64,000 bases of DNA from positions 32,001-96,000 of the IMG/VR virus record IMGVR_UViG_3300009314_000007, one strand, 5' to 3'. The notes beneath the pieces were generated by a model that did no database searches, had not been told where the DNA came from, and saw only the letters and a list, made by a program, of their open reading frames with translations. A program made the translations under genes and the position numbers. Numbering within the stretch: position 1 is the first letter of the stretch; each line of letters opens with the position of its first letter. Source of the DNA: a virus. Below, piece by piece: positions 2,865 to 64,000 of the stretch.

Positions 2865-3351
2865 CGAAAAAGCAATAACGTTAGTGGAAGATCTGCTCAA
2901 ACAGGTCTTTTCTCGGATTCCGGAGTTGCGGAGCGCCATTGTCATCTTCGATTGGCAGGGATCGCTCAACGAAGTGGCCAAACCAATGGTTTGGGTCAAA
3001 GAGAGCGGCAAGTCCGTTCAATCTGCGGACCTGGCGGAACTGAGTGGTGGCACCAAGCACACCCTCGCACTGCTTGATAGGCAGTTCCACGCCCTGGACC
3101 AAAACGCCAAAGCAGCTTGGGTCATTGCGGAAAGGAAACATCGTGAAGCGTCCGAAGCTAGTGCCCAGGCCTCGCCGCCCAGTACCGGCGAGCGAGGATC
3201 AGTGTTCCCAGGAGGACAGCGAGAGGGAAGCGGAAGCGATGCAGCTTCAGACCCTCAAGCAGCGGAAGAGTGCGAAGAACAAGCGACTCAAGGAGGCGCT
3301 GGAAGGAGTTCGGACGATTCCGGATCTGCTTCGACTGTTCAGGATTCGTGA
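2812..3351 (+). CDS. Hypothetical protein
   Basis: 179-aa ORF in operon order. Confidence 0.65.
   Translation: MTETPTNPTNPARALQFDEKAITLVEDLLKQVFSRIPELRSAIVIFDWQGSLNEVAKPMVWVKESGKSVQSADLAELSGGTKHTLALLDRQFHALDQNAKAAWVIAERKHREASEASAQASPPSTGERGSVFPGGQREGSGSDAASDPQAAEECEEQATQGGAGRSSDDSGSASTVQDS
2872..2887. repeat. Dispersed 16-bp palindrome copy 1 (GCAATAACGTTAGTGG)
   Basis: Read directly; matches five other copies. Confidence 0.9.
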
Positions 3352-4059: not shown

Positions 4060-4317
4060 ATGCCACGCGCCCTATGTAAAGTTGACGGATGTTTGGTCAT
4101 CGCAGAGTTCACTCGCTGCGAGCCAGGAACAACGGGCAAGTGTCCGCAGTGCCACCCGCCGCACAGGATGCCGCGACGTGGTGACCACGGTAAGTCACTC
4201 GTCGAGCGAGATGGCTGGCTCGAATGCACGACTGACGAGTGCGATTTTGCAATTCTCGCCTCGGACTACGAGCGGGTGATGATCGAACCGCTGCCATTTA
4301 TCGGCATGGGAATCTAG
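4060..4317 (+). CDS. Small Cys-rich (putative Zn-binding) protein
   Basis: CxxxxC, CPQC, CxxxxC; AGGAG SD. Confidence 0.6.
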   Translation: MPRALCKVDGCLVIAEFTRCEPGTTGKCPQCHPPHRMPRRGDHGKSLVERDGWLECTTDECDFAILASDYERVMIEPLPFIGMGI

Positions 4318-4343
4318 TGGATAACTCGAACCAGGAATGAAGT

Positions 4344-4910
4344 ATGAGCGACCTAACCCGCTGGACGCAGCGCAAACACGAGAAGACCGGCGACTCGTAC
4401 ATGACGCCGGAAGAGCATGGTTGCTGGACGAATTACAGCGAGGCCGACGAAAAGATCGAGCGGCTCAAAGAAGCCCTACGAGTACGTGGTGGCTGCCGAA
4501 TGCTCAGCGAGGGCGACAAGTGCGATTGCGGTCTCTGCAAGCGAGACAACGAGATTGCTCGGCTTCAGGAGATCGAGCGGTTCGCCAGTCACGCGGGCAT
4601 TCTCAAGGCCCAGGAAGACCATAATCGGATGATGAGCGAGATGGCAGCCAAGATTGAGCGTCTGGAGGCCGATATTGCCAAGCATCACGAAGACTACCAG
4701 ACACAGAACGATGAGATAGTCCGGTGTCACGCTAAGATCAAGCTGCTCACTCTTGCCGAGGCCTGTGCGAAGGCAGCTATCGAGTGCGTTCAAGTCACTG
4801 GCGTGCCGTACGCCATCCTGAGACCGGCACTTCGCTGGGAAGAAGTCGCAGAGAAAACCGATGAGGAGATCGCGCAAGGGCTGAACGAGCGTAGCCAAAG
4901 CGACACTTAA
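4344..4910 (+). CDS. Hypothetical coiled-coil protein
   Basis: Heptad-like KIERLKE/EIARLQE/KIERLEA, CDCGLC. Confidence 0.65.
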   Translation: MSDLTRWTQRKHEKTGDSYMTPEEHGCWTNYSEADEKIERLKEALRVRGGCRMLSEGDKCDCGLCKRDNEIARLQEIERFASHAGILKAQEDHNRMMSEMAAKIERLEADIAKHHEDYQTQNDEIVRCHAKIKLLTLAEACAKAAIECVQVTGVPYAILRPALRWEEVAEKTDEEIAQGLNERSQSDT

Positions 4911-13111: not shown

Positions 13112-13842
13112 GTGAAGCGAACAAGCTCTACGCTCGGTGGTATCGCAAACAGTGGTCTGCGGTTGGCGCCTACTTGCGGGAGCAGGACCGGGTGATTTTC
13201 GCGGAGCAGTCGAGGTTGATTCGAGCCGCTCAGAAGCGGCGACAACCTCGACGCCGGAAAAACTTCGATAAGCTGCCGGAGGATCTTCAAGAGGAGATTC
13301 ATCAGCAGCTACTGAAGCAGTTCGCCGATGTGATCCGGATTCGTGACGCGGTGAGAAAAGCACGGAGGGTTCGAGCGGCGAGGCTGCAAACACTGTGGCC
13401 GCGGGTGACCTTCGAGCCGCTTCCGAACATCTGGCAGCAGGTGGATTATTGCAGCTCAAACACCTACCGCTCGCAGGGATGGGGGAAGAACAAGTACGCC
13501 CGGGGTTCGCTGCTGATGTACGAGGAGCTGTTGAAGGAGCACGGGTACGACTGCGACGTGTATCGCGTGTTCGAGAGTCGCGTTGAAGGGCGGCACTATC
13601 CGGGGGCCGGGTACTTGCCGTCCGAGACGTATTATGGGTATGCGCTGTATGCCAACATTGAAGATTGGCGGTATCATGCTTTGATCCGCCGGGGGCTTTC
13701 GACGGAAGAAGAGATCGAGTTGCTGGAGAAACACGGCAGCTTGAACGTGATGGTGTACAACCCGTTTCTTAACCCCACCGAGGTCATGGAGTTGTGGGCG
13801 AAGATTCGCGAGAAGCGGCGGAAAGGAGTAGGACAGGCATGA
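13108..13842 (+). CDS. Hypothetical protein
   Basis: GTGA-coupled start, 244 aa. Confidence 0.65.
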   Translation: MSEANKLYARWYRKQWSAVGAYLREQDRVIFAEQSRLIRAAQKRRQPRRRKNFDKLPEDLQEEIHQQLLKQFADVIRIRDAVRKARRVRAARLQTLWPRVTFEPLPNIWQQVDYCSSNTYRSQGWGKNKYARGSLLMYEELLKEHGYDCDVYRVFESRVEGRHYPGAGYLPSETYYGYALYANIEDWRYHALIRRGLSTEEEIELLEKHGSLNVMVYNPFLNPTEVMELWAKIREKRRKGVGQA

Positions 13843-14725: not shown

Positions 14726-14741
14726 ACAATAACGTTATTGC
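14726..14741. repeat. Dispersed 16-bp palindrome copy 2 (ACAATAACGTTATTGC)
   Basis: Intergenic, 20 bp upstream of the SbcD-like start. Confidence 0.9.
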
Positions 14742-14761: not shown

Positions 14762-15934
14762 ATGGCGAACAATAAGCGGCTCGCGATGATCACGGCGGAT
14801 CTTCACCTGGACGATTACGCTTGGGCTGATCGACCGACACTGTCGGGAGATTCCCGGTGGTCGTTTCAGTGGATCTGCGATAAGGCGGAGAAGTTTGGCA
14901 ATCCCAGCGCGGCGAGTCCCAGCTTCTGCGTCATCGCGGCGGGGGATCTGGTCGAGAAGAAACGAAACGAGTCGGGTCCGGTCCACTTCATTCGGCGCAG
15001 GATGGAGCAATTGGAAAACGGCGATCCCAAGTCCGTGGGCTTCTACTACATTCAGGGGCAGCATGACATGCAGGATGAGCCGTGGTTCGGTTCAGCACAC
15101 CGCTGGCCGGAGCATATCCACGAGCCATCTGACGGTTATTGCTATGATCTGGGCGGGTACAAGCTGTGGGGAATCGACTGGACGCCCCCAGATCGCTTGC
15201 AGGAGGCCCTGGATAGGGTTCCCGAGGACACGGATATTCTGGTCATGCACCAGGTGTGTCACGAGTTCATGGGTTCCGTCGCGGCGCCCGAGTTGAGTTT
15301 CGACCGCATTCCGCATGCGAGGTTGCTGATCGTTGGCGACTACCACAAGCGAGTGAAGCTCGAAACACGGGGAGCCCACGGACAAAAGTTGACGGTGCTT
15401 TCTCCGGGCAGTACGAATCTGCGGGAGATCAGCGAGCAGCGGGACAAGGCGGTCTTCATGCTGTACGAGGATCTGAGTGTGAAGGTCGCGAAGATTCCCA
15501 CGAGGGCGGTGATCGAGACGCCGGACCTGCTCATGGAGGAGGCGGTCGAGGATCTCCTGGAGGAACTCGATACGTTAATCGACGCCGCGCAGGTTCGGGC
15601 GGTGAAAGCCGGTTTGCCCGTGGAATTGCACAGGCCGATCATCTACGTTCGGTATCATCGACGACTGGTCGGTACGGAGCCGCGGCTACTGAAGGCCATT
15701 GACCGGCGAGCCCACCTGTTCACCAAGGTGATCGGGGAGCTGGCGGAGGGTGAGGAGGGTGAGTCCGAGGAACTCGATCTGGGTGAGGAGGGTCTCACAC
15801 TTCTCGGGTGCTTGCCGGAGGAGGTGGACGAAGACCAGGAGCCGGGGGTGTTTGAAGGTCTCCAGCGACTGCTCAGCACGGACGAGCCCGCTGTGGAGTT
15901 GTCCAAGATGCGGGCGGAGCACTTGGATGCTTAG
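14762..15934 (+). CDS. sbcD: Mre11/SbcD-like metallophosphoesterase nuclease
   Basis: TADLHL, AGDLVE, QGQHD, VMHQ, GDYHK, SPGS motifs. Confidence 0.88.
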   Translation: MANNKRLAMITADLHLDDYAWADRPTLSGDSRWSFQWICDKAEKFGNPSAASPSFCVIAAGDLVEKKRNESGPVHFIRRRMEQLENGDPKSVGFYYIQGQHDMQDEPWFGSAHRWPEHIHEPSDGYCYDLGGYKLWGIDWTPPDRLQEALDRVPEDTDILVMHQVCHEFMGSVAAPELSFDRIPHARLLIVGDYHKRVKLETRGAHGQKLTVLSPGSTNLREISEQRDKAVFMLYEDLSVKVAKIPTRAVIETPDLLMEEAVEDLLEELDTLIDAAQVRAVKAGLPVELHRPIIYVRYHRRLVGTEPRLLKAIDRRAHLFTKVIGELAEGEEGESEELDLGEEGLTLLGCLPEEVDEDQEPGVFEGLQRLLSTDEPAVELSKMRAEHLDA

Positions 15935-28400: not shown

Positions 28401-28914
28401 TGGTCGTTTTCGTCGTTTCCCGGTTGCCCGAGAATGGGTAGTCCAGGGCGACTTCGAGCGACAGGCGATGAACTTCCCGATGCAGAACATGGTGGCAGAT
28501 GTAATGAGCAGGGTTGTGGATCACCTGTATCATTATCGAGAAGAATACCCGGACGTGACCTATCGCATGGTGGCGCAGATTCACGACGCGGTGTTGTTGG
28601 AGGTTCCGTACGCGCATGTGTCGCGTGTGATCGACGAAGTGATTCCCGAGTGCATGGTCAATCGCGTACCGATCTACCCGTGTACGCTGGACGGAATGCC
28701 GACAGGTAAGGGCCCCTACTATTTCGGTGCGGACATCGACCCGTATCATCGGTGGGGGCAGGATATGGCTCCGGATGAGTGCATGAAAATTGGACTCGAT
28801 CCGAAGTACGCGCACTGGACGCAGACCGCGAATGGTTATCTGCATCCAGAGAAGAAAGACAAGATTTGGGTTGGGGACATCCATGGAGGAGAACTTGTGT
28901 CTCTGGCGCCCTAA
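25465..28914 (+). CDS. polA: Family A DNA polymerase with N-terminal family-4 UDG-like domain and 3'-5' exonuclease
   Basis: UDG-like YVTNLMK, ILCLGA, ITHPAA; exo GIDAE, YGIYDAD; pol ETGRWAS..PPLQN, EADITGAEL, RLVAKSVIFGIAYG, QIHDA. Confidence 0.93.
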   Translation: MTKERRKLIRKGGPGLAAKTKEPVTTNVIGEADKKPKKKAVLAKRRDQPAPTRSRQPAGNLFPLNAPGMPLPGPDLLEYAAALGGTHEIVGKSRSARLTQAGQTLPALFRKILYSFGDIAVPFKHKGKRHDLSVVSGHVWGDPFGECRGPRQADVMVIAKMLGDEENNQGRNMIGNSGQLFLETCRELGLPRISRWYVTNLMKTLHPEADSGGTRLTAAMIKEWLPFLHQEIRIVQPKYILCLGADASAGLLEYEGGFKRKDKFRASISNMQGRIVEWEYPISRKDEGKIQYKQALVMSITHPAAVLHAPEQEDVYVNGVARFGQMIKGMRWDKEEEGLDHRTITSLVELKELYHEIRADCEDNLLGIDAEWHGDHPQNKGSYLRTIQISWKHKAAVCIRLRAPGGAWAFAGCGRKTVAKWVKRICKGRRLAGHFFSADLEWLIDFGIDLREEFMVPDTWTEYMKRWRRKKGCGFDTGLAAHGIAETDDFSLTSLTLRHTTAPRYDVALVKWVADYCNEHKLKKEELEGYGECPDDVLIPYGIYDADVTRRIAVKFARRLFKDRFNNNCWEAFWMSMRAQPAALEMNMSGVQIDRERLDRLTETYMSAKAKLENTVRTWARWPDMNLNSVFHIREFLYGERYNGHEHPEGTPPIRKRPADGRSLKLNPILTTDKRPMRWSEVVQKGLEDQKTPSTDKMCLAILAQDNQAVRKWHPTKLDYRTYDFSKQVTWVRDYRFISQVLKSMLRTPKIEKLPDKTEAFLKKDDYYVYPGGLPAAVCDDSRVRTHFYQTKETGRWASARPPLQNLTKRREVDYKRILGPDYKWALRTIITARPGHLLLEADITGAELAGMAIMSGDKRMIEHAQRNVLAEDDPNYYDIHSHVAVLAFRLDCEPTKGGLELIGMKHMRLVAKSVIFGIAYGRGAKAIALAAKEEGVNITVEEAQRVIDTIFRMYPRLVPFFEACRARSRDPRWICGCLGRFRRFPVAREWVVQGDFERQAMNFPMQNMVADVMSRVVDHLYHYREEYPDVTYRMVAQIHDAVLLEVPYAHVSRVIDEVIPECMVNRVPIYPCTLDGMPTGKGPYYFGADIDPYHRWGQDMAPDECMKIGLDPKYAHWTQTANGYLHPEKKDKIWVGDIHGGELVSLAP
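25538..25553. repeat. Dispersed 16-bp palindrome copy 3 (CCACTAACGTTATTGG)
   Basis: Inside the 5' end of the polymerase gene. Confidence 0.9.
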
Positions 28915-28962: not shown

Positions 28963-29015
28963 GGGGATGGTCGGTAAACCTGATTTTGTTTCAACCCATT
29001 GGAGGTCTGTTTATT

Positions 29016-31004
29016 GTGAGTAAGAAGAAAACGACGAAGAAGAAAGTAGCCAAGGCAGCCGTGAAGACGCGAGTGCCCGGGGCTCCCAAGGCAAGGAAGC
29101 GGACCAGGGACGCGCAGAAGGGCATGACGGCGCCGACGCTCGCCCCGCCGGACGACCGCACGCTGATGCGTGCAGGAGGGCGGTTGCCGCATGGTGGCAC
29201 GGTGCCGGAGGTGCAACTGTTGCGGCCCTCCTGGAAGGATGGGCACATGATCGTGCGGCCCTTGCCGACGTGGAATCCCATGAAGCCCGGCGAGGAGCTG
29301 GACCCGATTCGGAAGAGCGCCGAGCCGAATGGTTTCCGCGATTGGATTCGGGAAGTCACGGCTGTGTCCTATTGGGGCTCGGACGACGATGCGGTCACCT
29401 TCCTGTTGTACGACAAGGAGAACAGCACGCCGGACGAGTGGAGGGTCAATCCGGCCGTCGTGTTGTTTAGGGCGGTCAACGCGATAGCGAATCCGCAGAA
29501 GCCCACTTCGCAGTCGAAGTACATCGCGAAGTGGGCGAAGCTGATTGTGGGCAGCAAGAGGCTCATCAGCCCGCCCACGTCGTTGCTGTTCATGGGTGGC
29601 CTGGTGTTCAAGCGGGGCAACGACGTGTACTTCGGCAAGGACGCCCTGCGCGTGCCGGTGGGTTTGGCAGACGACGACGCCCCGCCGATCATCCAGCTCA
29701 AGGGCTCGCCTCGTTTCAAGGGTTCCTTGGTGTATCGTGTCAAGGAGGCCCTCAACGCACTCAATCCCGAGTGGGAGGGGGACCTGAGCGACTGGGAGAA
29801 CTCGATGCTCCATGGCGACGTGGTGGCTCCGGAGCACGGGCGATTCCTGACCATTTACAACCCGAAGGCCGAGGGTTTTCTGGCGAAGTCCGACGGGGAC
29901 GACGACGATGACGACGGCGAATTCGGTGTGGGTGGTCAGGGTGATGGTTCGCGAGGCAAGAAGGACGACGCCGAGGATATTCAGGGCTACCAGGTTCGTG
30001 TGGACAGGCACCTCCACCGCAACGGCAAGCTGCTGAAGAAGACGGCGACACTGGAGGACTCGTCCAAGGGTCCGTTCTTGACCACGGCGAAGCGGCAGAT
30101 CGTTTTCCTGGACGATATTCTGTACTTCCCGAGTGTCGAGGAGCAGTGCTTGCTGATCGCCAGGGCCCTGCGGCATTATCGGGAGCTGGTCGAACTTGGT
30201 TGGCAGCGACACCCGGAGTTTCTCACCGACGAGGTGCGGGCGGTGTTGGCCGACGCTACGCAGGCTGCGGTTGGTGGGGACGTTCCGGAAGACGAGGAGG
30301 GCGACGACGAGGCGTTGGACGAAAGCCTGACTCCGGGTAGCCGCGAGCGCCGACGTTCTGCCGGGGTCCCCGCGGCTGAAGTCGAAGAGGCCGAAGCCGA
30401 GGAGGGCGACGACGAGTACGAGACGGTCGAAGAGATCGACGCCGAGGGCGAAGACGAGGCCGAAGTCGCCGAGGGTGAGGAGGGCGACGAGCTTGAAGAG
30501 GACGAAGAGTACGAGGTGGTGGAAGTCGAGGAGGAGGTCGAAGTCGCCGAGGGTGAGGAGGGCGACGACGAGGAGGGCGAGGAGGCTGAAGCCGAAGACG
30601 AGGAGGTCGAAGCCGAGGCTGAGGAAGGCGACGACGAGTACGAGTTCGAGGAGGTCGAAGTCGATGAGGAGGACGAGGCTGCGGAGGAGGGAGAGGACGC
30701 TTCCGACGAATACGAGGACCCCTCTGATGTAGACGACGAGGAGTACGAGGAGGTGTCGGAAGAGGAGCCCGAAGCGGAGGCTGAGGAGCCCGATCCGGAC
30801 GAAGAGAACTTCCAGGAGCTTGCTGAGCAGGCGGAAGCGAGATCGGCTGCTCGTAAGGCCCCGGCGGCGAAGAAAAAGGGCGCGCCGAAGAAGAAGAAGG
30901 CCGCATCGAAGGCCACATCGGAGGCCGCACCGAAAAAGAAGGTGGTCAAGAAGAAGGTGGTCAAGAAGGCTCCTCCGAGCCGCAAGAAGAAGAAGAGCAG
31001 CTAG
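29016..31004 (+). CDS. Putative ssDNA-binding protein with long acidic region and histone H1-like Lys-rich ends
   Basis: GGAGG SD, GTG start; IVRPLP recalls gp32-type SSBs; between pol and RecA; about 190-aa Glu/Asp tract; KKKVVKKKVVKK tail. Confidence 0.55.
   Translation: MSKKKTTKKKVAKAAVKTRVPGAPKARKRTRDAQKGMTAPTLAPPDDRTLMRAGGRLPHGGTVPEVQLLRPSWKDGHMIVRPLPTWNPMKPGEELDPIRKSAEPNGFRDWIREVTAVSYWGSDDDAVTFLLYDKENSTPDEWRVNPAVVLFRAVNAIANPQKPTSQSKYIAKWAKLIVGSKRLISPPTSLLFMGGLVFKRGNDVYFGKDALRVPVGLADDDAPPIIQLKGSPRFKGSLVYRVKEALNALNPEWEGDLSDWENSMLHGDVVAPEHGRFLTIYNPKAEGFLAKSDGDDDDDDGEFGVGGQGDGSRGKKDDAEDIQGYQVRVDRHLHRNGKLLKKTATLEDSSKGPFLTTAKRQIVFLDDILYFPSVEEQCLLIARALRHYRELVELGWQRHPEFLTDEVRAVLADATQAAVGGDVPEDEEGDDEALDESLTPGSRERRRSAGVPAAEVEEAEAEEGDDEYETVEEIDAEGEDEAEVAEGEEGDELEEDEEYEVVEVEEEVEVAEGEEGDDEEGEEAEAEDEEVEAEAEEGDDEYEFEEVEVDEEDEAAEEGEDASDEYEDPSDVDDEEYEEVSEEEPEAEAEEPDPDEENFQELAEQAEARSAARKAPAAKKKGAPKKKKAASKATSEAAPKKKVVKKKVVKKAPPSRKKKKSS
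30461..30567 (+). repeat. Acidic-tract DNA repeat copy A
   Basis: Shares 40-nt and 43-nt identical blocks with 50279-50379. Confidence 0.85.
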
Positions 31005-31050
31005 AGGAAGCGCAGCTAGAGTTACTATCCCGCTTGGTTGTCCGCTCCAC

Positions 31051-31089
31051 GCCCGCCCCGGTCACACGGGGCGGGCTGGGGTCTTTTCC
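31051..31089 (+). terminator. Terminator-like hairpin before RecA-like gene
   Basis: GCCCGCCCCG/CGGGGCGGGC 10-bp stem followed by TGGGGTCTTTT. Confidence 0.55.
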
Positions 31090-31100
31090 AGGAGATGCAC

Positions 31101-32546
31101 ATGGCTAAAGCTAGAGAAGCGCCGAAGGCACGACCTCGACGCGAACCCGCGGCCGATTCCCCCGGGGAGGCACCACGGCCCCCGGCCGCTGTGAAGAAGA
31201 AGGTGGTGAAGAAGAAGGTGGTTCGTAAGGTTGCCAAGAAAAAGAAGAGAAAGACCAAGGCCCAGGTGTTCAAGGAGGCCTGGCAGCCCGAGCGGGTTGA
31301 GCAAAGCGCTGGCGCCTACGTCGATGCGATCATGGATCGGCTACAGAAGGAGAAGGGCGACCCGGACATCGTGATGGTCGGTAGCGACGACACCGTGGAC
31401 GTGGGCATTCCATTTCCCTCGTTCTGTCTGGAGTATCTGTTTGGCATATCCGTGTATCCTTTGGGGCGCATAGTGATGGTGGTAGGTCCCGAGGCGTCCT
31501 TGAAGAGCGGGTTCGTGTTCGAGATCACGAGGTGGTTCAAGGAAAGTTCTGGGCACGCCTTTACACTGGAACACGAGTCCAAGTTCTCGAAGACGCACGC
31601 GCAGTCCATTATTGGGCACGAGTACAAGCGAGCTACCGGTCTCGTGTGGTGCGACTCCATTGATGACTGGCAAGACAACATGCAGGCGATCTTTTCCGAC
31701 ATCAAGCTCAAGATGATCGGGACCAAGACCAATAGGGGTTCAGGTATGGTCTTCCCGGTTCACATGACCGTGGACTCGATCATGGGCAAGTCCCTGAGGG
31801 AGTCGCAGGATCGAATTGAGAAGAAAGGGCACGCTGGGCGGGATCACCCTGTTGAGGCTCAGAGCATCACCAAGTTCATGCGAAAGATCCCGCAAGATAT
31901 TCGTCGGTGGCCTTTCGCGATCACCATGGTGAATCATCTCAAGGCGAAAAAGACTGAGCAGGGTTTTCTGATTCGCGACAAGGCAGGTGGTAAGGGTCTG
32001 GATTTCCAGGAGACCTTCGAGATCGAGATGGCAAGGGTCACGCGGTCGAAGCTGAAGGACTACGAGGTGCTCCGTTTGCGGATGAGGTGTGCCAAGAGTA
32101 GCCTGGGTATCGACCAGCGGAGCATTCTTGCGGACGTGCTATTCTGGGACGAGCCGGAGGACGCGGAGAATCCGGAGGGATCTTGGCACCAGAAAACAGT
32201 GTTCAATTGGCATGGGGCCACTATTGACTTGTTGCTGGGGATGGAGGGCCCGGAGCGCAAGCGGTGGTCGGGAGACAGAGAAGTGGATGATCCAGGTGTG
32301 CTTGATTTGCACAGGCACGATCTAGGCAACAAGGGCAAGGGTGTCTGGTCCAGGACACTGGGGATTCCCGAGACAGACCCGGTTCCGTTCGCAGAAGCGG
32401 GGGCGATCCTGTCCGACAATGTTGAGGTGATGACGGCTCTTCGGCATCGCTTTGGCATCAAGATCTTCCGCGAGTTTGAGCCGGGCACGGACTATCGTGA
32501 AACGCGGGGTACCACCAAGAAGAAAATCCGGGAGAAGCTGCGATGA
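31101..32546 (+). CDS. recA: RecA/UvsX-like recombinase with Lys-rich N-terminus
   Basis: PLGRIVMVVGPEASLKS (variant Walker A), LEHE, TVDSI, MVNHLK, AGGKGLDF. Confidence 0.85.
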   Translation: MAKAREAPKARPRREPAADSPGEAPRPPAAVKKKVVKKKVVRKVAKKKKRKTKAQVFKEAWQPERVEQSAGAYVDAIMDRLQKEKGDPDIVMVGSDDTVDVGIPFPSFCLEYLFGISVYPLGRIVMVVGPEASLKSGFVFEITRWFKESSGHAFTLEHESKFSKTHAQSIIGHEYKRATGLVWCDSIDDWQDNMQAIFSDIKLKMIGTKTNRGSGMVFPVHMTVDSIMGKSLRESQDRIEKKGHAGRDHPVEAQSITKFMRKIPQDIRRWPFAITMVNHLKAKKTEQGFLIRDKAGGKGLDFQETFEIEMARVTRSKLKDYEVLRLRMRCAKSSLGIDQRSILADVLFWDEPEDAENPEGSWHQKTVFNWHGATIDLLLGMEGPERKRWSGDREVDDPGVLDLHRHDLGNKGKGVWSRTLGIPETDPVPFAEAGAILSDNVEVMTALRHRFGIKIFREFEPGTDYRETRGTTKKKIREKLR

Positions 32547-33590: not shown

Positions 33591-34773
33591 AGCCGACGCT
33601 ATCATCGCCGTGCCGCCGAAGTGCTATCGTTTTTCCGAGCGAGAGGAGGGAAGGGACGCGGCCGAGTTGGAGCGTATCTTGCGAGCGCAGGACGCCACGG
33701 AGCCTGTGGAGATCAACAAGCCCAAGGATGCGATGCTAGACAGCACTGGGCGGGTGCAGCGGCGGTTTCGGTTCACCACGACGGGTCTTAGCCAGTTGTG
33801 CTCGGCGCTCGCGCCGGGGCTGGCTCAGCTTGCGAGTAACGTGGCGGGACTTCGCAGGAAGGACACCGAGACCGACGAGTGGAAGGTGTACGATCCAGCC
33901 CTGGCGATTCATCAGATTAACGATCTGATTCGGTTGCGATTCAAAGAGCGGCTAGAGGGTCATGGGCTCATAATGGATCGCAGAAGTCTCAGCGTCGAGG
34001 GGGTCGTGGGGCCTCGCTATAAGTTCCTGTCCAACCTGGAGCTGTTTGAGCAGGCCAGGGAATTCGCACGGGAGCAGGAATCCATGCCGCGGTTCTTCGA
34101 GGCGACCCTGGAGGGTCGCCGGGTGGTGATTCGGTATCGAGACGCCGAGAGGCTGTTCTCGCTACCCGCGGCTCAGCAGAAACGCGAGCCGTTTTATCGG
34201 GGGTGGCATTTCTCCAATTCCGAGATTGGCGATTGCTCGATACGGACGGGGATGCTGATTGTCCGGCAGTGGCGGCGAACCTCGTCGCTGCTGGACATCG
34301 GCCGGTTGGTGCATTTGAAGGGCGGGGAGTTTGGTCCAAAGATTGGGGAGTTATTCCAGAAACTTCGGGTACAGGCCAACGCCGAGGCGCAGGAGAACGA
34401 TTACGAGAGCCTGGCGGCGGATATGCAGGCAGAATCTCTGCAACTAGGCGGAGATCCTGTGGCACACGTGCGGCGAGCGCAGAGCCTGGTTGGGCGGCTG
34501 TCTCGGGGACGACTGTCGAAGATCGCAGCGAAGCGGGCGGTCAATCACGCTCTCGCAAACGGGAGTTATCGGGGCGACCGGGTTGAAGGGGGCCGCGTTC
34601 CGACGTACGATGCCCCTGATGAGGATCTCTTGGGTGTTTTTCGTCAGCGCAATGTGTACGATCTGTACAACGCGCTGACGACGATTGCTCGGGAGTCGCC
34701 TCCCGAGCAGCAAGAGGTGGCAGAAGAGCAAGCGTATCGTATACTTGTCCAACGTTTTCGATTACACAATTAG
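33583..34773 (+). CDS. DUF932-like protein
   Basis: VVGPRYKFLSNLELF, GWHFSNSEIGDCSI, NVYDLYNALT. Confidence 0.55.
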   Translation: MSEADAIIAVPPKCYRFSEREEGRDAAELERILRAQDATEPVEINKPKDAMLDSTGRVQRRFRFTTTGLSQLCSALAPGLAQLASNVAGLRRKDTETDEWKVYDPALAIHQINDLIRLRFKERLEGHGLIMDRRSLSVEGVVGPRYKFLSNLELFEQAREFAREQESMPRFFEATLEGRRVVIRYRDAERLFSLPAAQQKREPFYRGWHFSNSEIGDCSIRTGMLIVRQWRRTSSLLDIGRLVHLKGGEFGPKIGELFQKLRVQANAEAQENDYESLAADMQAESLQLGGDPVAHVRRAQSLVGRLSRGRLSKIAAKRAVNHALANGSYRGDRVEGGRVPTYDAPDEDLLGVFRQRNVYDLYNALTTIARESPPEQQEVAEEQAYRILVQRFRLHN

Positions 34774-34789
34774 GAAGGAAGAAACCCCA

Positions 34790-35764
34790 ATGGCGAAGTC
34801 AACAATCGCTTTGACCACGGAACAGAAGAAGCTGTTCCAGATGATGCCGAAGCCACTTCAGGCTATGGCTGCGAAGATGAAGAGGGCTACTGACGAGATT
34901 GTCAGCCACGAGGTGCTCGGCAAGTACGGGCTCGGCGAAGAGGTCCGGCGCGTGACCAACAACGAGCGCAAATACGGCGAGGCCGCGGTGCCCACACTGG
35001 CCGCGTTTTTGGGCGAGCACCCCAACGTGCTTTGGGATTGCCAGCGGTTCTGCAACGCTTACACTCGCACGGAAGTCGAGCGGATGATCAGGCGAGTGGG
35101 CGCAGGCGGCCAGCGGATCACTTTTGGGCACCTGAGAGTGCTTTCCGGGTTGGAGGGCACCGACGCCCTGAAAAAGCGGGTCAGGCTGGAAAAGGCCATT
35201 TTGGAGGAGGGGCTTTCGGTTCGCGCGTTGGAGAAGGCCGTCCAGGCGATACTCGGCTCGCGCACCACGAGTGCTACTCCAGGGCGCAACGTTCGCGTGG
35301 CCAAGGATGTGTTGTCGGGTCTTGCCGACATGACCACCAACACCAAGAAGCTCGTCAACCGAGTGCCGTCCTGGGAGAAGGGCGTGTTCGTCCGCGTGGC
35401 TGCGGGCGACGGCGTGACTAAGAAGACGGTTACGCAGCTCGAAGCGTCGAAGAAGGTCATGGACGATTCCATCGCGAAGCTCGAAGGTGTGTCCTCGCAA
35501 CTAGACAAGGCGATCTCCCAGGCAAAGAAGGAGCTTGCGAAGCCTAATCGACCCGCACCGGCCAAGAAGAAGACGGCTCCGAAGAAGAAGGTCGTGAAGA
35601 AGAAGGTCGTGAAGAAGGCGAAGAAGAAGACGACCAAGAAGAAGAAGGACCCGAAGAAGGCGGCCAAAAAGAAAGTCGTGAAGGCGAAGAAGAAGGTCAA
35701 GAAGAAGCGCACGAGCGCTACCGACCGGATTCAGGCCGCGAGGCGGAAGCGACGACCGGCGTGA
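34790..35764 (+). CDS. ParB/Spo0J-type (DUF1016_N-like) DNA-binding domain protein with coiled coil and H1-like tail
   Basis: KYGEAAVPTLA..L, ITFGHLRVLSGL...ILEEGLSVRALEKAV; no N-terminal ParB CTPase (GxRR) box; about 70-aa Lys-rich tail. Confidence 0.65.
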   Translation: MAKSTIALTTEQKKLFQMMPKPLQAMAAKMKRATDEIVSHEVLGKYGLGEEVRRVTNNERKYGEAAVPTLAAFLGEHPNVLWDCQRFCNAYTRTEVERMIRRVGAGGQRITFGHLRVLSGLEGTDALKKRVRLEKAILEEGLSVRALEKAVQAILGSRTTSATPGRNVRVAKDVLSGLADMTTNTKKLVNRVPSWEKGVFVRVAAGDGVTKKTVTQLEASKKVMDDSIAKLEGVSSQLDKAISQAKKELAKPNRPAPAKKKTAPKKKVVKKKVVKKAKKKTTKKKKDPKKAAKKKVVKAKKKVKKKRTSATDRIQAARRKRRPA

Positions 35765-35973
35765 CGTGTTGCGTTGGCCCCACCACGTGAGATCGCCCTG
35801 ATCGAAGTTGAGTGCTCTATTTGAGACTGCTTCGATCCCGACCTGGCACTCCAGTGGGGACCCCTTTAGGCAGAAAGGCTCGCAGGGTTTGCGGCGGGTC
35901 TGGGTGTGGACGGAAAATGCCGAATCTACCAGGGACGCTGGCCCGGCTAGGTGTATTAAGCCCGATCTTACCA

Positions 35974-36798
35974 ATGGCGAAATCCACACAACGCATCACG
36001 ATTTCCGCTCTCTTCTACGGGGATTACCCGCAGCTTGCCGAACGCTGTCTTGGCACGCTTGCGGGTTCTCTCCTGGAGGGGGAGGACTACCTTCAGGACA
36101 TTCGGCTGATTCTGAACGACTGTTGTCCCGAGACGTACTGCTTCGCGACAGACTGGGCCACACGAGTGCAGGATCTGCATGGGGTGCCAGTTATTCGCTA
36201 CGTTACGGAGGAAAACCAGTGTAAGTATCCGCTCATGCGGAGAATCTGGTGGGACGATCCCCAGAAGCCCGCTTCCTTGCTGATGTGGTTCGACGACGAT
36301 AGTTTCCTGGATCATCCCAAGCCGGGGTGGTACGCGGACATTGTCGATCAGATACAGGGTTGCGACATGCTGGGGCAGATCTGGCATCAGCCCATGCTGG
36401 GGAATCAATGGGCTTTCATTGTCCAGCAGCCGTGGTACAATGCCCGGGCAGGTCAGCCGCCCAGGTACAAGGGCCGTCGTTGCTTTCGTTTTTGCCAGGG
36501 CTCATGGTGGGTGGCTCGTCGCGATGTTCTCCACCGGTACGATTGGCCCACCAAGGCCCTGAAGCACAATGGTGGGGATTCGCTATTTGGCGAGCTGTGT
36601 AGACAGCAGGGATTGCGACTGCGGCACTACGACCGGGGTGTGCGTCTCAACGCGGACGAGAAGGGGAGGCACTCCAAGTCACTGCGGCGAGGTCGCAGTG
36701 AACCTAATTTGGGGCGGCACTACAAACCGCAGGTGGCTCTGGATTTGAGTCACCATAACTTTAACTTGGCTAGGATGGCCGTTCCGGAAGGCTACTAG
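35974..36798 (+). CDS. Glycosyltransferase (GT-A/GT2-like)
   Basis: LILNDC, EENQCK, LLMWFDDDS (DxD), GSWW..R, GGDSLFG. Confidence 0.7.
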   Translation: MAKSTQRITISALFYGDYPQLAERCLGTLAGSLLEGEDYLQDIRLILNDCCPETYCFATDWATRVQDLHGVPVIRYVTEENQCKYPLMRRIWWDDPQKPASLLMWFDDDSFLDHPKPGWYADIVDQIQGCDMLGQIWHQPMLGNQWAFIVQQPWYNARAGQPPRYKGRRCFRFCQGSWWVARRDVLHRYDWPTKALKHNGGDSLFGELCRQQGLRLRHYDRGVRLNADEKGRHSKSLRRGRSEPNLGRHYKPQVALDLSHHNFNLARMAVPEGY

Positions 36799-37287: not shown

Positions 37288-38082
37288 ATGAGCAGTGCTG
37301 GTCTTATCCAGAATAGCGCTACAGCGCCACCAACCGCGCCGCCACAGCCGGTGCATCCGCATCACGAGGGGATTCCCGCGCAACCCGTGGTAGCGATGAG
37401 TCCCACACAGGCCGCCGAGCAGGCTTTCGCGCAGCCCTTGGCGCCGCAACCCGATCCGAGCAGACCCACGATAACTCCGCAGGAGGCATATCAGACGCCC
37501 GCGAATCCCGAGTCCGTGCCGCCGCATACGGAGCAGCAGCACGACACCGGGCTGGCCATGGACCAGGTGATTCGCGGGTTTGTGGACACCGTGAATCGTT
37601 GGGAGATCATCAATTCGGCCTATCGTGGTATCCAGGAATCCGTGACAGGCAAGCGGCAGCCACCTGTCGTGAGCTTCCCCACTGGGGTGCATAACGACGA
37701 AGGGGACCCGGAGATCTGCGAGATTGATCTGAACGCCGTGATCCCGACAGGCATCCCGGAAGAGCAGCGAGTGCAGAAGCTGCGGGAGATGCTCACACCT
37801 TGGAACAACTATCTGGTGAAGGAGTGGCAGCGGCTGTGGATGAAGCTCATGTTCTTCGCGATGCAAGGTGCCGCGAGTCTCGATCCTGAGCATCTCCTGC
37901 AAGAGGCGGCGAAGGTCATGCTCCGCAGTCCGGATCGGCTGCTCGACCTGGCTACGCGGTTGAGCGAGAACATGCGGGCGGTTGCCGAGCAGCCACCAGC
38001 ACCTCCCGCGCAGCCGCCCGCACCTCCGACTGCGCCTCCAACGGCGGTTGGTTCCTCGCAGCTCCCCGCGGTGCCACAATGA
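37288..38082 (+). CDS. Hypothetical protein with Pro/Gln-rich termini
   Basis: AAGGAG SD, 264 aa. Confidence 0.65.
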   Translation: MSSAGLIQNSATAPPTAPPQPVHPHHEGIPAQPVVAMSPTQAAEQAFAQPLAPQPDPSRPTITPQEAYQTPANPESVPPHTEQQHDTGLAMDQVIRGFVDTVNRWEIINSAYRGIQESVTGKRQPPVVSFPTGVHNDEGDPEICEIDLNAVIPTGIPEEQRVQKLREMLTPWNNYLVKEWQRLWMKLMFFAMQGAASLDPEHLLQEAAKVMLRSPDRLLDLATRLSENMRAVAEQPPAPPAQPPAPPTAPPTAVGSSQLPAVPQ

Positions 38083-38639
38083 GCGAGTCCAATAACGTTA
38101 TTGCGAATCCCGAGGACACTAATCCTCGGGACGGATGGAGGGTCAAGGAGTTCGAGGCGTCCATGGACGATTCGATCTCGTTGTGGCTGGAGTTCGTGCA
38201 GGACGGCGTTCCGCGGGAGGAGCATAGTTTCTGCTTGCGGAGATGGCTGCAAGACACCAGCATCAATTCCGGCCAGCGGGAGCGGTTGCGGGCCGTGGTG
38301 ACGGCGATTGCTCGGTATGCGAATCTGGGCGGGCCACTGTCGGCCCTGGATGACGTTGTCCGCAGGATGGAGGACACCGGCCTGGTGATTGACTGGGCGG
38401 GCTGGAGCGTGCTGGACACGCATCAAGAGCCGGATGATGTGATTCACTACCTGGTCAACGGGGCTGGGGAGGTGTTGGTGTGGGCCGAAGACTCGTATTT
38501 CGAGCTGACGACGTTGGACGAGTTGAATCAGGATTTGTTGCATGAGAGCGAGGACGTACCCAATAGGGAAGATCCTCCACCTGAAGGGCCAGATCCTATC
38601 GGACCCGGAGGTGGAGTGCTTCCTGGACCAAGAGATTAA
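38079..38639 (+). CDS. Hypothetical protein
   Basis: ATGA-coupled, 186 aa. Confidence 0.6.
   Translation: MSESNNVIANPEDTNPRDGWRVKEFEASMDDSISLWLEFVQDGVPREEHSFCLRRWLQDTSINSGQRERLRAVVTAIARYANLGGPLSALDDVVRRMEDTGLVIDWAGWSVLDTHQEPDDVIHYLVNGAGEVLVWAEDSYFELTTLDELNQDLLHESEDVPNREDPPPEGPDPIGPGGGVLPGPRD
38089..38104. repeat. Dispersed 16-bp palindrome copy 4 (CCAATAACGTTATTGC)
   Basis: 10 bp into the 38079 gene. Confidence 0.9.
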
Positions 38640-55985: not shown

Positions 55986-56477
55986 ATGGAAGTCATCTGT
56001 CACAAGAAGTGTCGCGACTGGCTTGGCTTCTTAATCAAGTTGTTCACGTGGGGGCCGTACAGTCACACAGAGCTGCGATTTTCGGACGACGTGTGTTTTT
56101 CCGCTTCCTGGGTAAAGGAGCGGCGGGGCTTTTTGGGTCTCTTTGGAGTTCGAGCTGGCACGAGGTTCAAAAAGATCGAGCTGAAGCCCGAACGATGGGA
56201 CCGCTGGAAGATCACTCTTAGTCCGGAGGAGGAGGCCAAGATTCGAGCTTGGTGCAAGCAGCGGGCGGGGCGTCCGTACGACATACTGGGTATCCTTGGC
56301 TTTGTTCTCTTCAAGGACATCGACGCTCCATTCGCTTGGTATTGCTCGGAGATCAGTTCCCGAGCACTTACCGTCTTCGGGATCTTCAGGTTTCCAAGCC
56401 AGATTTCTCCTAACGGCATGGCTCGCATCATGCGAGCGCACCCGAACATTTTCCAGCCAGTCACAGAGAGCGAGTAA
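55986..56477 (+). CDS. Permuted papain-like (NlpC/P60, YaeF/YiiX-type) protein
   Basis: YSHTEL ... GRPYD ... WYCSEI (His before Cys). Confidence 0.7.
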   Translation: MEVICHKKCRDWLGFLIKLFTWGPYSHTELRFSDDVCFSASWVKERRGFLGLFGVRAGTRFKKIELKPERWDRWKITLSPEEEAKIRAWCKQRAGRPYDILGILGFVLFKDIDAPFAWYCSEISSRALTVFGIFRFPSQISPNGMARIMRAHPNIFQPVTESE

Positions 56478-62359: not shown

Positions 62360-62884
62360 ATGAACCAGGGATTGGTTTTGATGCCGGTGAGTCCAGGAGA
62401 GTTATTGGACCGGTTGACTATTCTGAATGTCAAGCAGGACAAGCTCGATGGTGATAAGCAGATCGCAGCTTTGGAGTTGTCGATGGAGCTGCACGAGGTG
62501 GCTGACCCGCTCCTCGACAAGCCGGGTGTTTCCCTCGTTGCCGATCAACTGTACGAGATCAACACGCAGTTGTGGGAGGTGGAGGACCATTTGCGGGCTG
62601 CTGACGGGCAGGTGTTCCCGATCACTGTCGGGCGGACGATTACCGAGGAGACCGTGAGGTATTGCTCGCTGGCTCGGCTCGTTTACAACCTCAACGATCA
62701 GCGATGTGGTTTGAAGCGAGAGCTTGATGAGATGCTTGGCGGTGTCGTCGAGCCGAAACAATACGCCGAATACGAGAGATCCCATGACAGAGGACGCCCC
62801 GCGGAAGAAAGTGATCAAGAAGAAGGTCATCAGGAAAGTGGCGAAGAAGCCCCAGGAAGCCCCCGCGGCGAGCCCCGTGGATGA
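62360..62884 (+). CDS. DUF6165-like protein
   Basis: PVSPGELLDRLTIL.VK, INTQLWEVED.LR, LARLVY.LND.R..LK, EPKQY. Confidence 0.78.
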   Translation: MNQGLVLMPVSPGELLDRLTILNVKQDKLDGDKQIAALELSMELHEVADPLLDKPGVSLVADQLYEINTQLWEVEDHLRAADGQVFPITVGRTITEETVRYCSLARLVYNLNDQRCGLKRELDEMLGGVVEPKQYAEYERSHDRGRPAEESDQEEGHQESGEEAPGSPRGEPRG

Positions 62885-64000
62885 CATCGACATCCCGACC
62901 GTCGGACCGGTGATGAAGGACTACGATGTCCAGGACGCCTTCGAGTACGACACGGCCTTCAACATGGCCTTTATTGGAGCCGGTGAGGCGGGCGGCCGGA
63001 TCGTGGAAACATTCTACGGCCTCGGCTACCGGCGATTGGCTGCTATCAATGGCGGCGACGAGATCAACCAGTTGCCCGGGGAGATCGCGGCGCTGGATCT
63101 GCGTACCGGCGGGGCGGGCAAAGATCCCCAACTCGGCGCCGCGCAGATTCGAGACCGCGAGGAGGAGATCTTCGAGCTGATGACTCGGGGTTTCGGGAAG
63201 AACCCTGACTTCATCCTGGTGTGTGCCGGTTTTGGCGGCGGTACTGGCGGCGGTGCGGCGCCCAAGCTGATCGACGTGGCTCGCAAGTACATGACGGAGC
63301 GGGGGAAAGACCCCGGCAGAGTCGGAGCCATCGTGACGCTGCCACATCACGCCGAGGGCTACACACCTTGCCGTAACGCGGTGACGTGTTTCAAGCAGGT
63401 TTTTGAGAAGAGACCCTCACCACTTCTGATTATCGACAACCTTCGGATTGGGGAGCTAGCACCAGATGCCGAAAAAGGCTGGAGAAAAATCTACCGTTAC
63501 GCCAACGCGCAAGTTGCCAAGCTCTTCCATCTCTTTAATCGCTTTGCTGCGACAAGAAGTGAAATCCTTACCTTCGACCGAGCGGACTTCGCTTCTCTCC
63601 TTGATTCAGGAATTTGTGTCTTCGGGGCCTCTGCTATCGGGACTTACGACAGCCCAGCAGACATTTCTGAAGCAATCCGCGAGCAGTTGGCGGCTACCGT
63701 CCTGGCCCAAGTCAGTCTCAAAGAAGGACAGAAAGCGGGCTGTCTCTTTGTTGGAAGCCCGGAAATTCTTGACTCAGTGCCAGTGGAGTTTTTTGATGGT
63801 GGGTTCACGATGCTCACCAGACTACTCCAAGAAAACAGCGTTGTGCATCGGGGTGTGTACGAAGGATCTCAGGCCGATTTGCGATGCTACACCATGCTCG
63901 CCGGTCTCCCTGCCCCATCCGAGCGTCTCAAAAAACTTGCCAGTTCAGGAGGATTAGCGGGCCAAGGAACGGCGGGTTTTCTCGGTGTTGATGACGGAGA
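62784..64000 (+). CDS. Tubulin/FtsZ-family GTPase (TubZ/PhuZ/CetZ-like), 3' end beyond window
   Basis: Manual translation: FIGAGEAGGRI, AAING, GGAGKDP, AGFGGGTGGG (tubulin signature), LIIDN, TFDRADF (T7 loop); Lys-rich N-terminus. Confidence 0.92.
   Translation, partial: MTEDAPRKKVIKKKVIRKVAKKPQEAPAASPVDDIDIPTVGPVMKDYDVQDAFEYDTAFNMAFIGAGEAGGRIVETFYGLGYRRLAAINGGDEINQLPGEIAALDLRTGGAGKDPQLGAAQIRDREEEIFELMTRGFGKNPDFILVCAGFGGGTGGGAAPKLIDVARKYMTERGKDPGRVGAIVTLPHHAEGYTPCRNAVTCFKQVFEKRPSPLLIIDNLRIGELAPDAEKGWRKIYRYANAQVAKLFHLFNRFAATRSEILTFDRADFASLLDSGICVFGASAIGTYDSPADISEAIREQLAATVLAQVSLKEGQKAGCLFVGSPEILDSVPVEFFDGGFTMLTRLLQENSVVHRGVYEGSQADLRCYTMLAGLPAPSERLKKLASSGGLAGQGTAGFLGVDDG

Follow-up and report, generated by a model that had tools for sequence, protein, structure and literature searches.

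A ParB-type DNA-binding protein without a CTPase domain, encoded in the replication module of large uncultured phages, is a candidate reader of lineage-specific dispersed palindromes

The viral record IMGVR_UViG_3300009314_000007 carries a palindrome that recurs along its length, and a 64,000-nucleotide stretch of it (positions 32,001 to 96,000, hereafter the window) contains an open reading frame (ORF) for a 324-amino-acid protein, P0001, with a region that resembles the DNA-binding domain of ParB. The locus raises the question of whether P0001 reads the palindromes and, if it does, to what end. A preliminary description, made from the letters of the window, had named it the best candidate binder of the dispersed palindrome, acting as a site-anchored compactor or a tubulin adaptor rather than as a sliding clamp. 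The window comes from a 107,336-bp IMG/VR virus record, referred to below as genome G000, for which CheckV gives a completeness of about 51%. Our analysis makes it highly probable that P0001 is a DNA-binding dimer with a ParB-type head, and leads us to favor slightly the view that it is the reader of the dispersed palindromes. New here are the protein family, its predicted dimer, its conserved place in a replication module and the lineage-specific palindromes found in its relatives.

The central part of P0001 shares with ParB and Spo0J a helix-turn-helix (HTH) with its following helices and the elements L(S/T)xGHxR..L and LSVR.LE. Its second DNA-contact helix reads ITFGHLRVL (residues 110–118) and is followed by EGLSVRALE; within it, H114 is kept by at least 90% of family members. 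The Pfam model HTH_ParB aligned to residues 108–154 (model positions 57–100 of 102) at a sub-threshold score, 19.2 bits with the full protein and 21.2 bits without its tail, the cut-off being 22.6. A profile of 89 relatives matched Spo0J (E 2.8e-4), Myxococcus ParB and Noc among PDB sequences over the same stretch, with E values from 2.8e-4 to 8e-3. The AlphaFold2 (AF2) model of residues 1–247, computed on the alignment of these 89 relatives, reached a predicted local distance difference test (pLDDT) of 94.1 and a predicted template modeling score (pTM) of 0.72. When this model was compared with the PDB by Foldseek, the top ~30 matches were all DNA-binding domains of ParB, Spo0J, Noc or SopB (probability 0.82–1.00, E about 0.02–0.5). 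Superposition by VIA-align gave Z 7.0 for the ParB–parS structure 6s6h (106 aligned residues, root-mean-square deviation (rmsd) 5.6, model residues 40–164), Z 6.4 for Spo0J 1vz0 (93 aligned, rmsd 3.2), Z 5.8 for KorB 8qa8 (100 aligned, rmsd 3.7) and Z 5.4 for SopB. Z values of this size are modest for helical proteins; the ParB-type assignment is nevertheless safe because four independent lines agree. We conclude that residues ~40–164 of the modeled protein have the ParB/Spo0J/Noc/KorB DNA-binding fold, and this is the sole HTH_ParB-like region found in the 107-kb record.

The remainder of the protein departs from ParB. A search for the CTP (cytidine triphosphate)-binding domain ParB_N (PF02195) in P0001 and throughout the 107-kb record gave no match, no GxxR box is present, and residues 1–57 were modeled by AF2 as helices only. 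No Pfam match to the ParB_C dimerization domain was found in P0001, nor any to the ParA-type AAA_31 in the record, which is about half complete. Because the CTPase domain, ParB_C and a ParA partner were not found, we place P0001 outside the ParB-CTPase family; without a CTP-binding N-domain, it therefore cannot act as a CTP-gated sliding clamp. The preliminary description had read the gene as a ParB-type DNA-binding domain without CTPase, followed by a heptad region and about 70 Lys-rich residues, and both parts of that claim are borne out. The top PDB matches of the fold are ParB-type heads, and the 'heptad region' corresponds in the AF2 model to an antiparallel helical hairpin (helices 174–205 and 211–246) that by VIA-align resembles generic helical hairpins only and that precedes the basic tail.

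When two copies of P0001 were co-folded on the family alignment, an ipSAE of 0.80 was obtained, versus 0.01 for the best control. Of proteins solved as same-chain pairs, 20 of 30 attain this mark, as against 1 of 23 among those solved as single chains, counts that hold only roughly here since the alignment was one of our own making. Three dimer runs agreed in at least 92% of contacts, with a partner pLDDT of at least 83, and the interface was symmetric and large, comprising the N-terminal helix (residues 12–55) and the hairpin. The prediction speaks for, without proving, a fixed dimer with an HTH domain on each subunit. ParB-type domains read 16-bp palindromes as dimers, and the same had been proposed for P0001; the dimeric half of that proposal is matched by a predicted symmetric homodimer, while for the reading of palindromes the evidence is circumstantial.

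An exhaustive phmmer search with P0001 retrieved 575 representative clusters at E<=1e-3 (clustered at 50% identity) and 103 at E<=1e-10, most of about 300 amino acids and aligning over P0001 residues 1–245; a word-indexed search retrieved four relatives only. The ten clusters looked up were all metagenomic and without an informative name, and the nearest ESM-Atlas clusters were mostly viral. The family has no match in PHROGs and nothing meaningful in NCBIfam. No match came from tblastn against GenBank phages and PLSDB plasmids, from scans of viral contigs with family alignments and single members, or from a scan of genome contigs. Its structural neighbors among viral models were unnamed phage proteins and DUF3102 proteins. 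P0001 thus belongs to a large uncharacterized family that is mostly viral and was encountered in metagenomes alone. Among Pfam models, DUF1016_N (PF17761) fits this family best, with matches in 61 of the 89 aligned members (best E 4.5e-12), and 12 of the 89 match HTH_ParB at E<=0.01; P0001 itself gives no match to DUF1016_N at E<=10. Its best label is a DUF1016_N-like, ParB-type HTH protein.

The genomic surroundings of the family are conserved. An alignment of the family-A DNA polymerase (PolA) retrieved 38 related IMG/VR loci with PolA identities of 25–51%, and in 35 of them PolA is followed on its own strand, at a distance of 4.5–7 kb, by a family member. Gene by gene, 25 loci were compared, all of which possess the family gene, in the order PolA – [c9] – SSB-like – UvsX – c5 – [c8] – P0001 family – c4 (glycosyltransferase (GT)-like) – … – c6, where ORFs in the relatives were called crudely, as the longest ones. 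In L001, a close relative (80% identity), the genes are arranged as in G000 and the same two palindrome positions are occupied. Sixteen related records were also fetched whole (G001 and 15 more), 14 with the family gene and two without. Exactly one family copy is present in 15 of the 17 whole records, the two lacking it, G017 and G018, being PolA outgroups and our gene-less controls; whole genomes G000–G016 correspond to loci L006–L015 and L053–L192. The family gene is hence a core single-copy gene of the replication/recombination module in a clade of ~100–230-kb uncultured phages.

Over the 107-kb record the palindrome of G000, sCAMTAACGTTAKTGs, recurs 12 times, with a mean gap of 9.5 kb and a coefficient of variation of the gaps of 0.25. 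Its core, TAACGTTA, occurs 10 times versus 0.1–0.7 expected, and the palindrome is also written as CCAMTAACGTTAKTGG or CCAATAACGTTATTGG. The dispersed palindrome of the preliminary description is thereby real; the copies that fall in the window are given in Table 1.

One motif search was applied to every whole genome, and lineage-specific dispersed palindromes or quasi-palindromes were found across the clade. Clear cases are G000, G001 (ttcTTTTCCGGAAAAgaa, 13 copies; also written TTTTCCGGAAAA), G003 (ctAAAAAGTACTTTTTg, 11 copies; also written AAAAGTACTTTT), G014 (gATgTAATTAGCGCTAATTAcaTc, 14 copies; also written ATTAGCGCTAAT), G015 (gCGGTGCTTAAtTACCGc, 18–19 copies), G016 (ttAAAATCCGGAATTwaa, 14 copies), G013 (tTCAATCCGCGGGtATTGAa, ~11 copies) and G005, G006 and G012, which share taAAATCCGGATTTta in 6, 4 and 6 copies, respectively. 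With the weaker cases G007 (TTGATAGAyGTCTATCAA), G008 and G011 included, ~13 of the 15 family-bearing whole genomes have a palindrome of their own. The sites are 14–24 bp long and present at 4–19 copies per genome, with mean gaps of 9.5–33 kb. Spacing was more even than random in six genomes (G000, P<5e-5; G015, 1e-4; G001, 4e-4; G014, 8e-4; G016, 1e-3; G003, 8e-3). Set aside were one GC-rich palindrome of G013 and the short ones of G007, G008, G002 and G017, whose flanks were not conserved and whose spacing was random. The same search found no such palindrome in the two gene-less outgroups. Searching the literature for palindromes dispersed at regular intervals in phages turned up nothing relevant, and we found no prior description of lineage-specific, evenly spaced palindromes in large uncultured phages.

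Intergenic sequence holds 62 of 134 sites versus about 6% of the genomes being non-coding, and the centers of 52 of 127 sites (about 40%) fall 0–50 nt ahead of a predicted start codon. For asymmetric motif variants, the orientation relative to the adjacent gene was same/opposite in 8/6 cases in G015, 4/3 in G016, 3/5 in G013 and 6/4 in G007. This independence of gene strand led us to reject a directional promoter or an RNA element/hairpin as the nature of the sites, and favors a symmetric dimer on DNA.

Other repeats were observed along the way. Genome G009 (loci L097–L098) contains repeat clusters with a 61–62-nt period at 13654–13778, 29008–29069 and 30291–30475, which include TATCCACGCACGCGTGGGTGAGAC and may represent either a set of iterons or an array of the CRISPR kind. 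The outgroup G017 (L153–L163) has a non-palindromic motif with a promoter-like look, ctATATCTAAAAgaTtCa, in about 9 copies.

The link between protein and sites was sought upstream of the family gene. With exact cores only, adjacency of the motif to the gene was inconsistent across genomes. When 1–3 mismatches were allowed, a copy was seen just before the family-gene ribosome-binding site (RBS) in G003, G005, G006 and G016, and a copy lies 12–36 nt upstream of the family gene in G003, G004, G005, G006, G012, G016 and G019. In G001 and G007 a copy is found where c8, the neighbor directly upstream, begins. Nine genomes therefore have a copy upstream of the family gene or its operon, and the previously unexamined loci L018–L025, L040, L048 and L049 have matching palindromes at the same spot. 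The upstream palindrome also had predictive power in two genomes that had not been examined before: that of G004 recurs genome-wide at 9 sites (<=2 mismatches), versus 1 for a reversed-pattern control, and that of G019 at 6 positions, versus 0 for the control. In G009 the same prediction gave only a weak result. Between G006 (L024, about 17738) and G005 (L021, about 17984), the upstream palindrome shows a symmetric double change, AAAATCTAGATTTT versus AAAATCCAGATTTT or AAAATCCGGATTTT, which keeps its palindromic character, as is expected for a dimer operator. Upstream copies with genome-wide recurrence form the pattern that an autoregulated, site-specific DNA-binding protein would be expected to leave, seen here in about four independent lineages. 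As the best candidate binder of the dispersed palindrome, P0001 is in this way upheld by circumstantial evidence, namely co-occurrence within the clade and the upstream copies in nine genomes, but not by a copy beside its own gene in G000.

From these computed features we infer palindrome binding, autoregulation and a physiological role as follows. P0001 would be a constitutive homodimer, each subunit bearing a ParB/Noc/KorB-type HTH DNA-binding domain, with a six-helix bundle (N-terminal helix plus C-terminal hairpin) joining the two subunits. Having no CTP-binding N-domain, it would not close into a clamp and slide, and should stay on its sites. As its targets, the dispersed 14–20-bp (quasi)palindromes of the phage itself are the most likely, sCAMTAACGTTAKTGs in G000. 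The sites ahead of start codons and the copies before the family gene or operon lead to the reading that P0001 would serve as a site-anchored global operator/organizer protein, KorB- or Noc-like in its dispersed sites but without spreading, which probably autoregulates its own expression. The Lys-rich tail may add non-specific DNA affinity in G000, as an accessory and variable feature. Taken as a whole, this explanation appears to us slightly more likely than not. A bolder version, which we consider possible but doubtful, sees in P0001 a CTP-independent, ParB-like 'lattice reader', for which, in a clade of ~200-kb phages, evenly spaced palindromes that change fast from one lineage to another would serve to organize the genome and not merely to repress, for example with P0001 as a multi-origin initiator, scaffold or looping factor. 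Current thinking on the ParB family centers on the model of a CTP-gated clamp, and the P0001 family, widespread and mostly viral, keeps the ParB reading head while swapping the CTP switch for a predicted fixed dimer bundle. If P0001 does read the sites, the two would make a simple protein–site pair that has diverged many times and lends itself to studying the evolution of DNA-binding specificity, and would show large phage genomes being regulated or organized with neither ParA nor CTP and, in several members, with no tubulin.

Several observations weigh against P0001 as the palindrome reader. In G000 no motif copy lies within 3 kb of its gene, the nearest being at +3.3 kb and −9.3 kb. The upstream copies in nine genomes stand for about four independent lineages only, and the residues of the recognition helix showed no clear co-variation with the motif sequence beyond phylogeny. 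Co-occurrence of gene and palindrome, which the preliminary description had offered as a check, held in ~13 of 15 genomes and failed in G009, which has the gene but no clear lattice, with G002 ambiguous; the companion check, for a motif in relatives lacking the gene, came out in favor of the reading, with two outgroup phages as the only gene-less controls. At the level of the clade, such co-occurrence is common to many other core genes. Furthermore, the missing half of the record could encode another reader, and proteins with sigma-70 region 4 and an RNA polymerase (RNAP) alpha-CTD-like domain are encoded in the window itself. A rival reading is that P0001 binds DNA while another factor reads the palindromes, P0001 being instead a replication/recombination accessory of the PolA–SSB–UvsX module (origin-binding protein, loader or mediator) and the motif copies near its gene merely marking the heads of transcription units under other control. 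Such a role is in keeping with the invariant place of the gene in the replication module in 25 of 25 loci, with the lack of a neighboring motif copy and of residue–motif co-variation, and with the other DNA-binding proteins in the window and the missing half of the genome. Against it, ParB-type domains characteristically read ~16-bp palindromes as dimers (complexes with parS and the Noc-binding site (NBS), 6s6h and 6y93, are among the structural matches), the upstream copy recurs in about four lineages and is predictive, and P0001 carries the only ParB-like HTH found in the record. We consider the accessory role a serious but unlikely alternative to P0001 as reader of the palindromes.

Other roles fit the data less well. 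The idea of a tubulin adaptor would make P0001 a TubR-like centromere protein, bound to the palindromes and linking the genome with TubZ/PhuZ-like filaments. The window does encode a tubulin/FtsZ-family protein (Pfam Tubulin, E 1.1e-10), a Lys/Val-rich tag is shared by its N-terminus and the P0001 tail, and tubulin homologues accompany the family gene in G003, G005, G006, G008, G012 and G016. By both tblastn and Pfam, however, tubulin is absent from G001 (93% complete), G009 (91%), G013 (100%), G014 (89%) and G015 (100%); all five keep the family gene and four of the five have a palindrome lattice. A tubulin adaptor therefore cannot be the conserved function. Moreover, tubR normally lies adjacent to tubZ, versus 27 kb between the P0001 and tubulin genes, and the fold of P0001 is ParB-type, not the winged helix of TubR; a conserved adaptor is unlikely, and a TubR-like role for P0001 very improbable. 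Only a little less improbable is a mainly non-specific compactor of the histone H1 kind, in which the tail would do the work and the HTH assist. The tail of P0001 (residues 251–324) holds 32 Lys and 7 Arg among its 74 residues (53%), and 68 of 146 members of the wider family have strongly basic tails, 17 of 146 being acidic. Among the 15 family-bearing genomes compared, in contrast, a Lys-rich tail is confined to G000 and G003, the others being acidic or short and mixed; P0004 and P0005, both close homologues, carry acidic C-tails, and the conserved part of the family is the HTH-plus-bundle core. In addition, the same tag occurs on the SSB-like and UvsX-like proteins, which makes it look like a phage-wide add-on. 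The likeness to histone H1/H2B tails is one of composition only (PDB sequence matches to histone tails, E>0.6), and P0001 lacks the winged-helix globular domain of linker histone H1. Neither the compactor nor the adaptor proposal of the preliminary description thus finds support in the form given there. Finally, the DUF1016_N matches are to the N-domain of the YhcG nuclease, and P0001 could be a decayed or split YhcG-type relative that keeps the targeting domain and works with a separate nuclease, for instance in defense or anti-defense. We hold this to be the most remote of the readings: Pfam finds no PD-(D/E)XK nuclease C-domain in P0001 or in any of the 89 aligned members, the length within the family is uniform at about 300 amino acids, a hairpin and a charged tail take the place of the nuclease domain in P0001, and what the conserved neighbors encode is replication proteins and a GT-like protein rather than nucleases.

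Among characterized proteins, the closest working analogy for P0001 as a site-anchored palindrome reader is KorB of plasmid RK2, with which it shares the ParB-type DNA-binding domain. KorB acts at a dozen palindromic operators dispersed on a mobile genome, many beside promoters, and regulates its own operon (PMC11790492; in part established knowledge); it is a CTP-dependent sliding clamp that is locked in place by KorA (PMC11790492). P0001, in contrast, has no CTPase domain and no known KorA-like partner, and its sequence similarity to KorB is confined to the fold. With Noc, which binds many dispersed 16-bp palindromes, it likewise shares the ParB-type domain, and the motifs TTTTCCGGAAAA and AAATCCGGATTT of its relatives resemble the core of the Noc-binding site. 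To get to the membrane, Noc depends on CTP and on an N-terminal amphipathic helix, whereas P0001 has neither the CTP domain nor such a helix. From ParB and Spo0J themselves it differs in having its dimerization predicted through the N-helix/hairpin bundle. MatP, a coiled-coil dimer on about 23 dispersed palindromes (matS), organizes the Ter macrodomain of Escherichia coli and offers a further possible analogy as a dimeric, site-specific protein with dispersed palindromes; its fold is ribbon-helix-helix and it was not among the fold-search matches of P0001. The predicted structures of DUF3102 phage/plasmid proteins, Chlamydia pGP6-D/CT583 (UPF0137) and DUF6192 are among the nearest neighbors, with a ParB-like HTH flanked by long helices and with genes on mobile elements, but show no significant sequence similarity to P0001 and are leads only.

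Table 1. Positions of the genes, protein segments and palindrome copies discussed, in window coordinates
Feature	Position	Strand	Remarks
PolA with UDG domain	25465–28914		head of gene string
RecA/UvsX-like recombinase	31038–32546		same string
Upstream neighbor c8, ~396 aa	33583–34773	+	ends 16 nt before P0001 gene; kept there in 10 of 25 related loci
P0001 gene, 324 codons	34790–35764	+	ATG at 34790, stop at 35762–35764; RBS-like AGGAAGGA at 34772–34779, upstream of the ATG
P0001 residues 1–57	34790–34960	+	short helix and long N-terminal helix (21–57) in AF2 model; packs against C-terminal hairpin, part of predicted dimer interface; stands where true ParB proteins have the CTPase domain
P0001 residues 58–154	34961–35251	+	ParB/Noc/KorB-type DNA-binding domain as modeled; HTH, helices 66–74 and 78–90
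P0001 residues 155–173	35252–35308	+	lower-confidence linker with family-conserved G(G)R..P motif (G165, R166)
P0001 residues 174–246	35309–35527	+	antiparallel helical hairpin, main predicted homodimer interface
P0001 residues 251–324	35540–35761	+	disordered Lys-rich tail containing KKKVVKKKVVKK, ending in SATDRIQAARRKRRPA
Downstream neighbor c4	35812–36798	+	adjoins family gene in 24 of 25 loci; DDD motif, weakly GT2-like
Tubulin/FtsZ-family gene	62724–63998	+	
Palindrome copy GCAATAACGTTAGTGG	2872–2887	.	
Palindrome copy ACAATAACGTTATTGC	14726–14741	.	intergenic, 21 nt before ATG at 14762
Palindrome copy CCACTAACGTTATTGG	25538–25553	.	73 nt into annotated PolA ORF (also given as +81), head of uninterrupted, tightly packed PolA-to-P0001 string; nearest copy upstream of P0001 gene; kept at same place in relative L001
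Palindrome copy CCAATAACGTTATTGC	38089–38104	.	10 nt after ATG of ORF 38079–38639; nearest copy downstream of P0001 gene
Palindrome copy CCACTAACGTTAGTGG	48845–48860	.	inside ORF 48338–49645
Palindrome copy CCAATAACGTTAATGG	55960–55975	.	10 nt before ATG at 55986

The tail of P0001 showed two further features. In G000 the tag KKKVVKKKVV occurs at the C-terminus of the SSB-like protein, at the N-terminus of the UvsX-like protein, in the P0001 tail and in one more ORF (window 30852–30998, 31182–31274 and 35546–35728, and genome position 4265–4363, outside the window), and a looser form is present at the tubulin N-terminus. It has the look of an add-on to DNA-handling proteins that is particular to this phage, and it may be a phage-wide DNA-affinity or localization tag. 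Many family members, distant ones included, also end in a short motif like ERIxAAR..RRPxPA, which can be written as S..(D/E)R(I/V).(A/T)A(R/K), basic residues, and then RP.PA at the extreme C-terminus. It occupies residues 309–324 of P0001 (window 35714–35761) and is found in P0002, P0007, P0009, P0011, P0012, P0015 and others, being common to members just ~30% identical; it may be a partner-binding peptide.

As can be seen in Table 1, the P0001 gene lies in a tight string, after PolA, SSB-like, UvsX-like and two unknown genes and before the GT-like gene, in a window where nearly all genes are on the + strand. The AF2 model of c8 was confident (pLDDT 84.5, pTM 0.83); it had no Foldseek match in the PDB, and the c8 sequence matched no Pfam family. 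Profiles of c4 and c5 gave no match among PDB sequences. The DDD motif of c4 is invariant and 4 of 23 c4 members match Glycos_transf_2 weakly; c4 may encode a glycosyltransferase of the replication module that modifies DNA or protein. In a Pfam census of 85 window ORFs, we also found, besides the sigma-70 region-4 and RNAP alpha-CTD-like proteins, an N6/N4 DNA methylase (E 1.4e-48), three HNH endonucleases, an RNase H and an SMC_N/AAA_23 (Rad50-like) protein.

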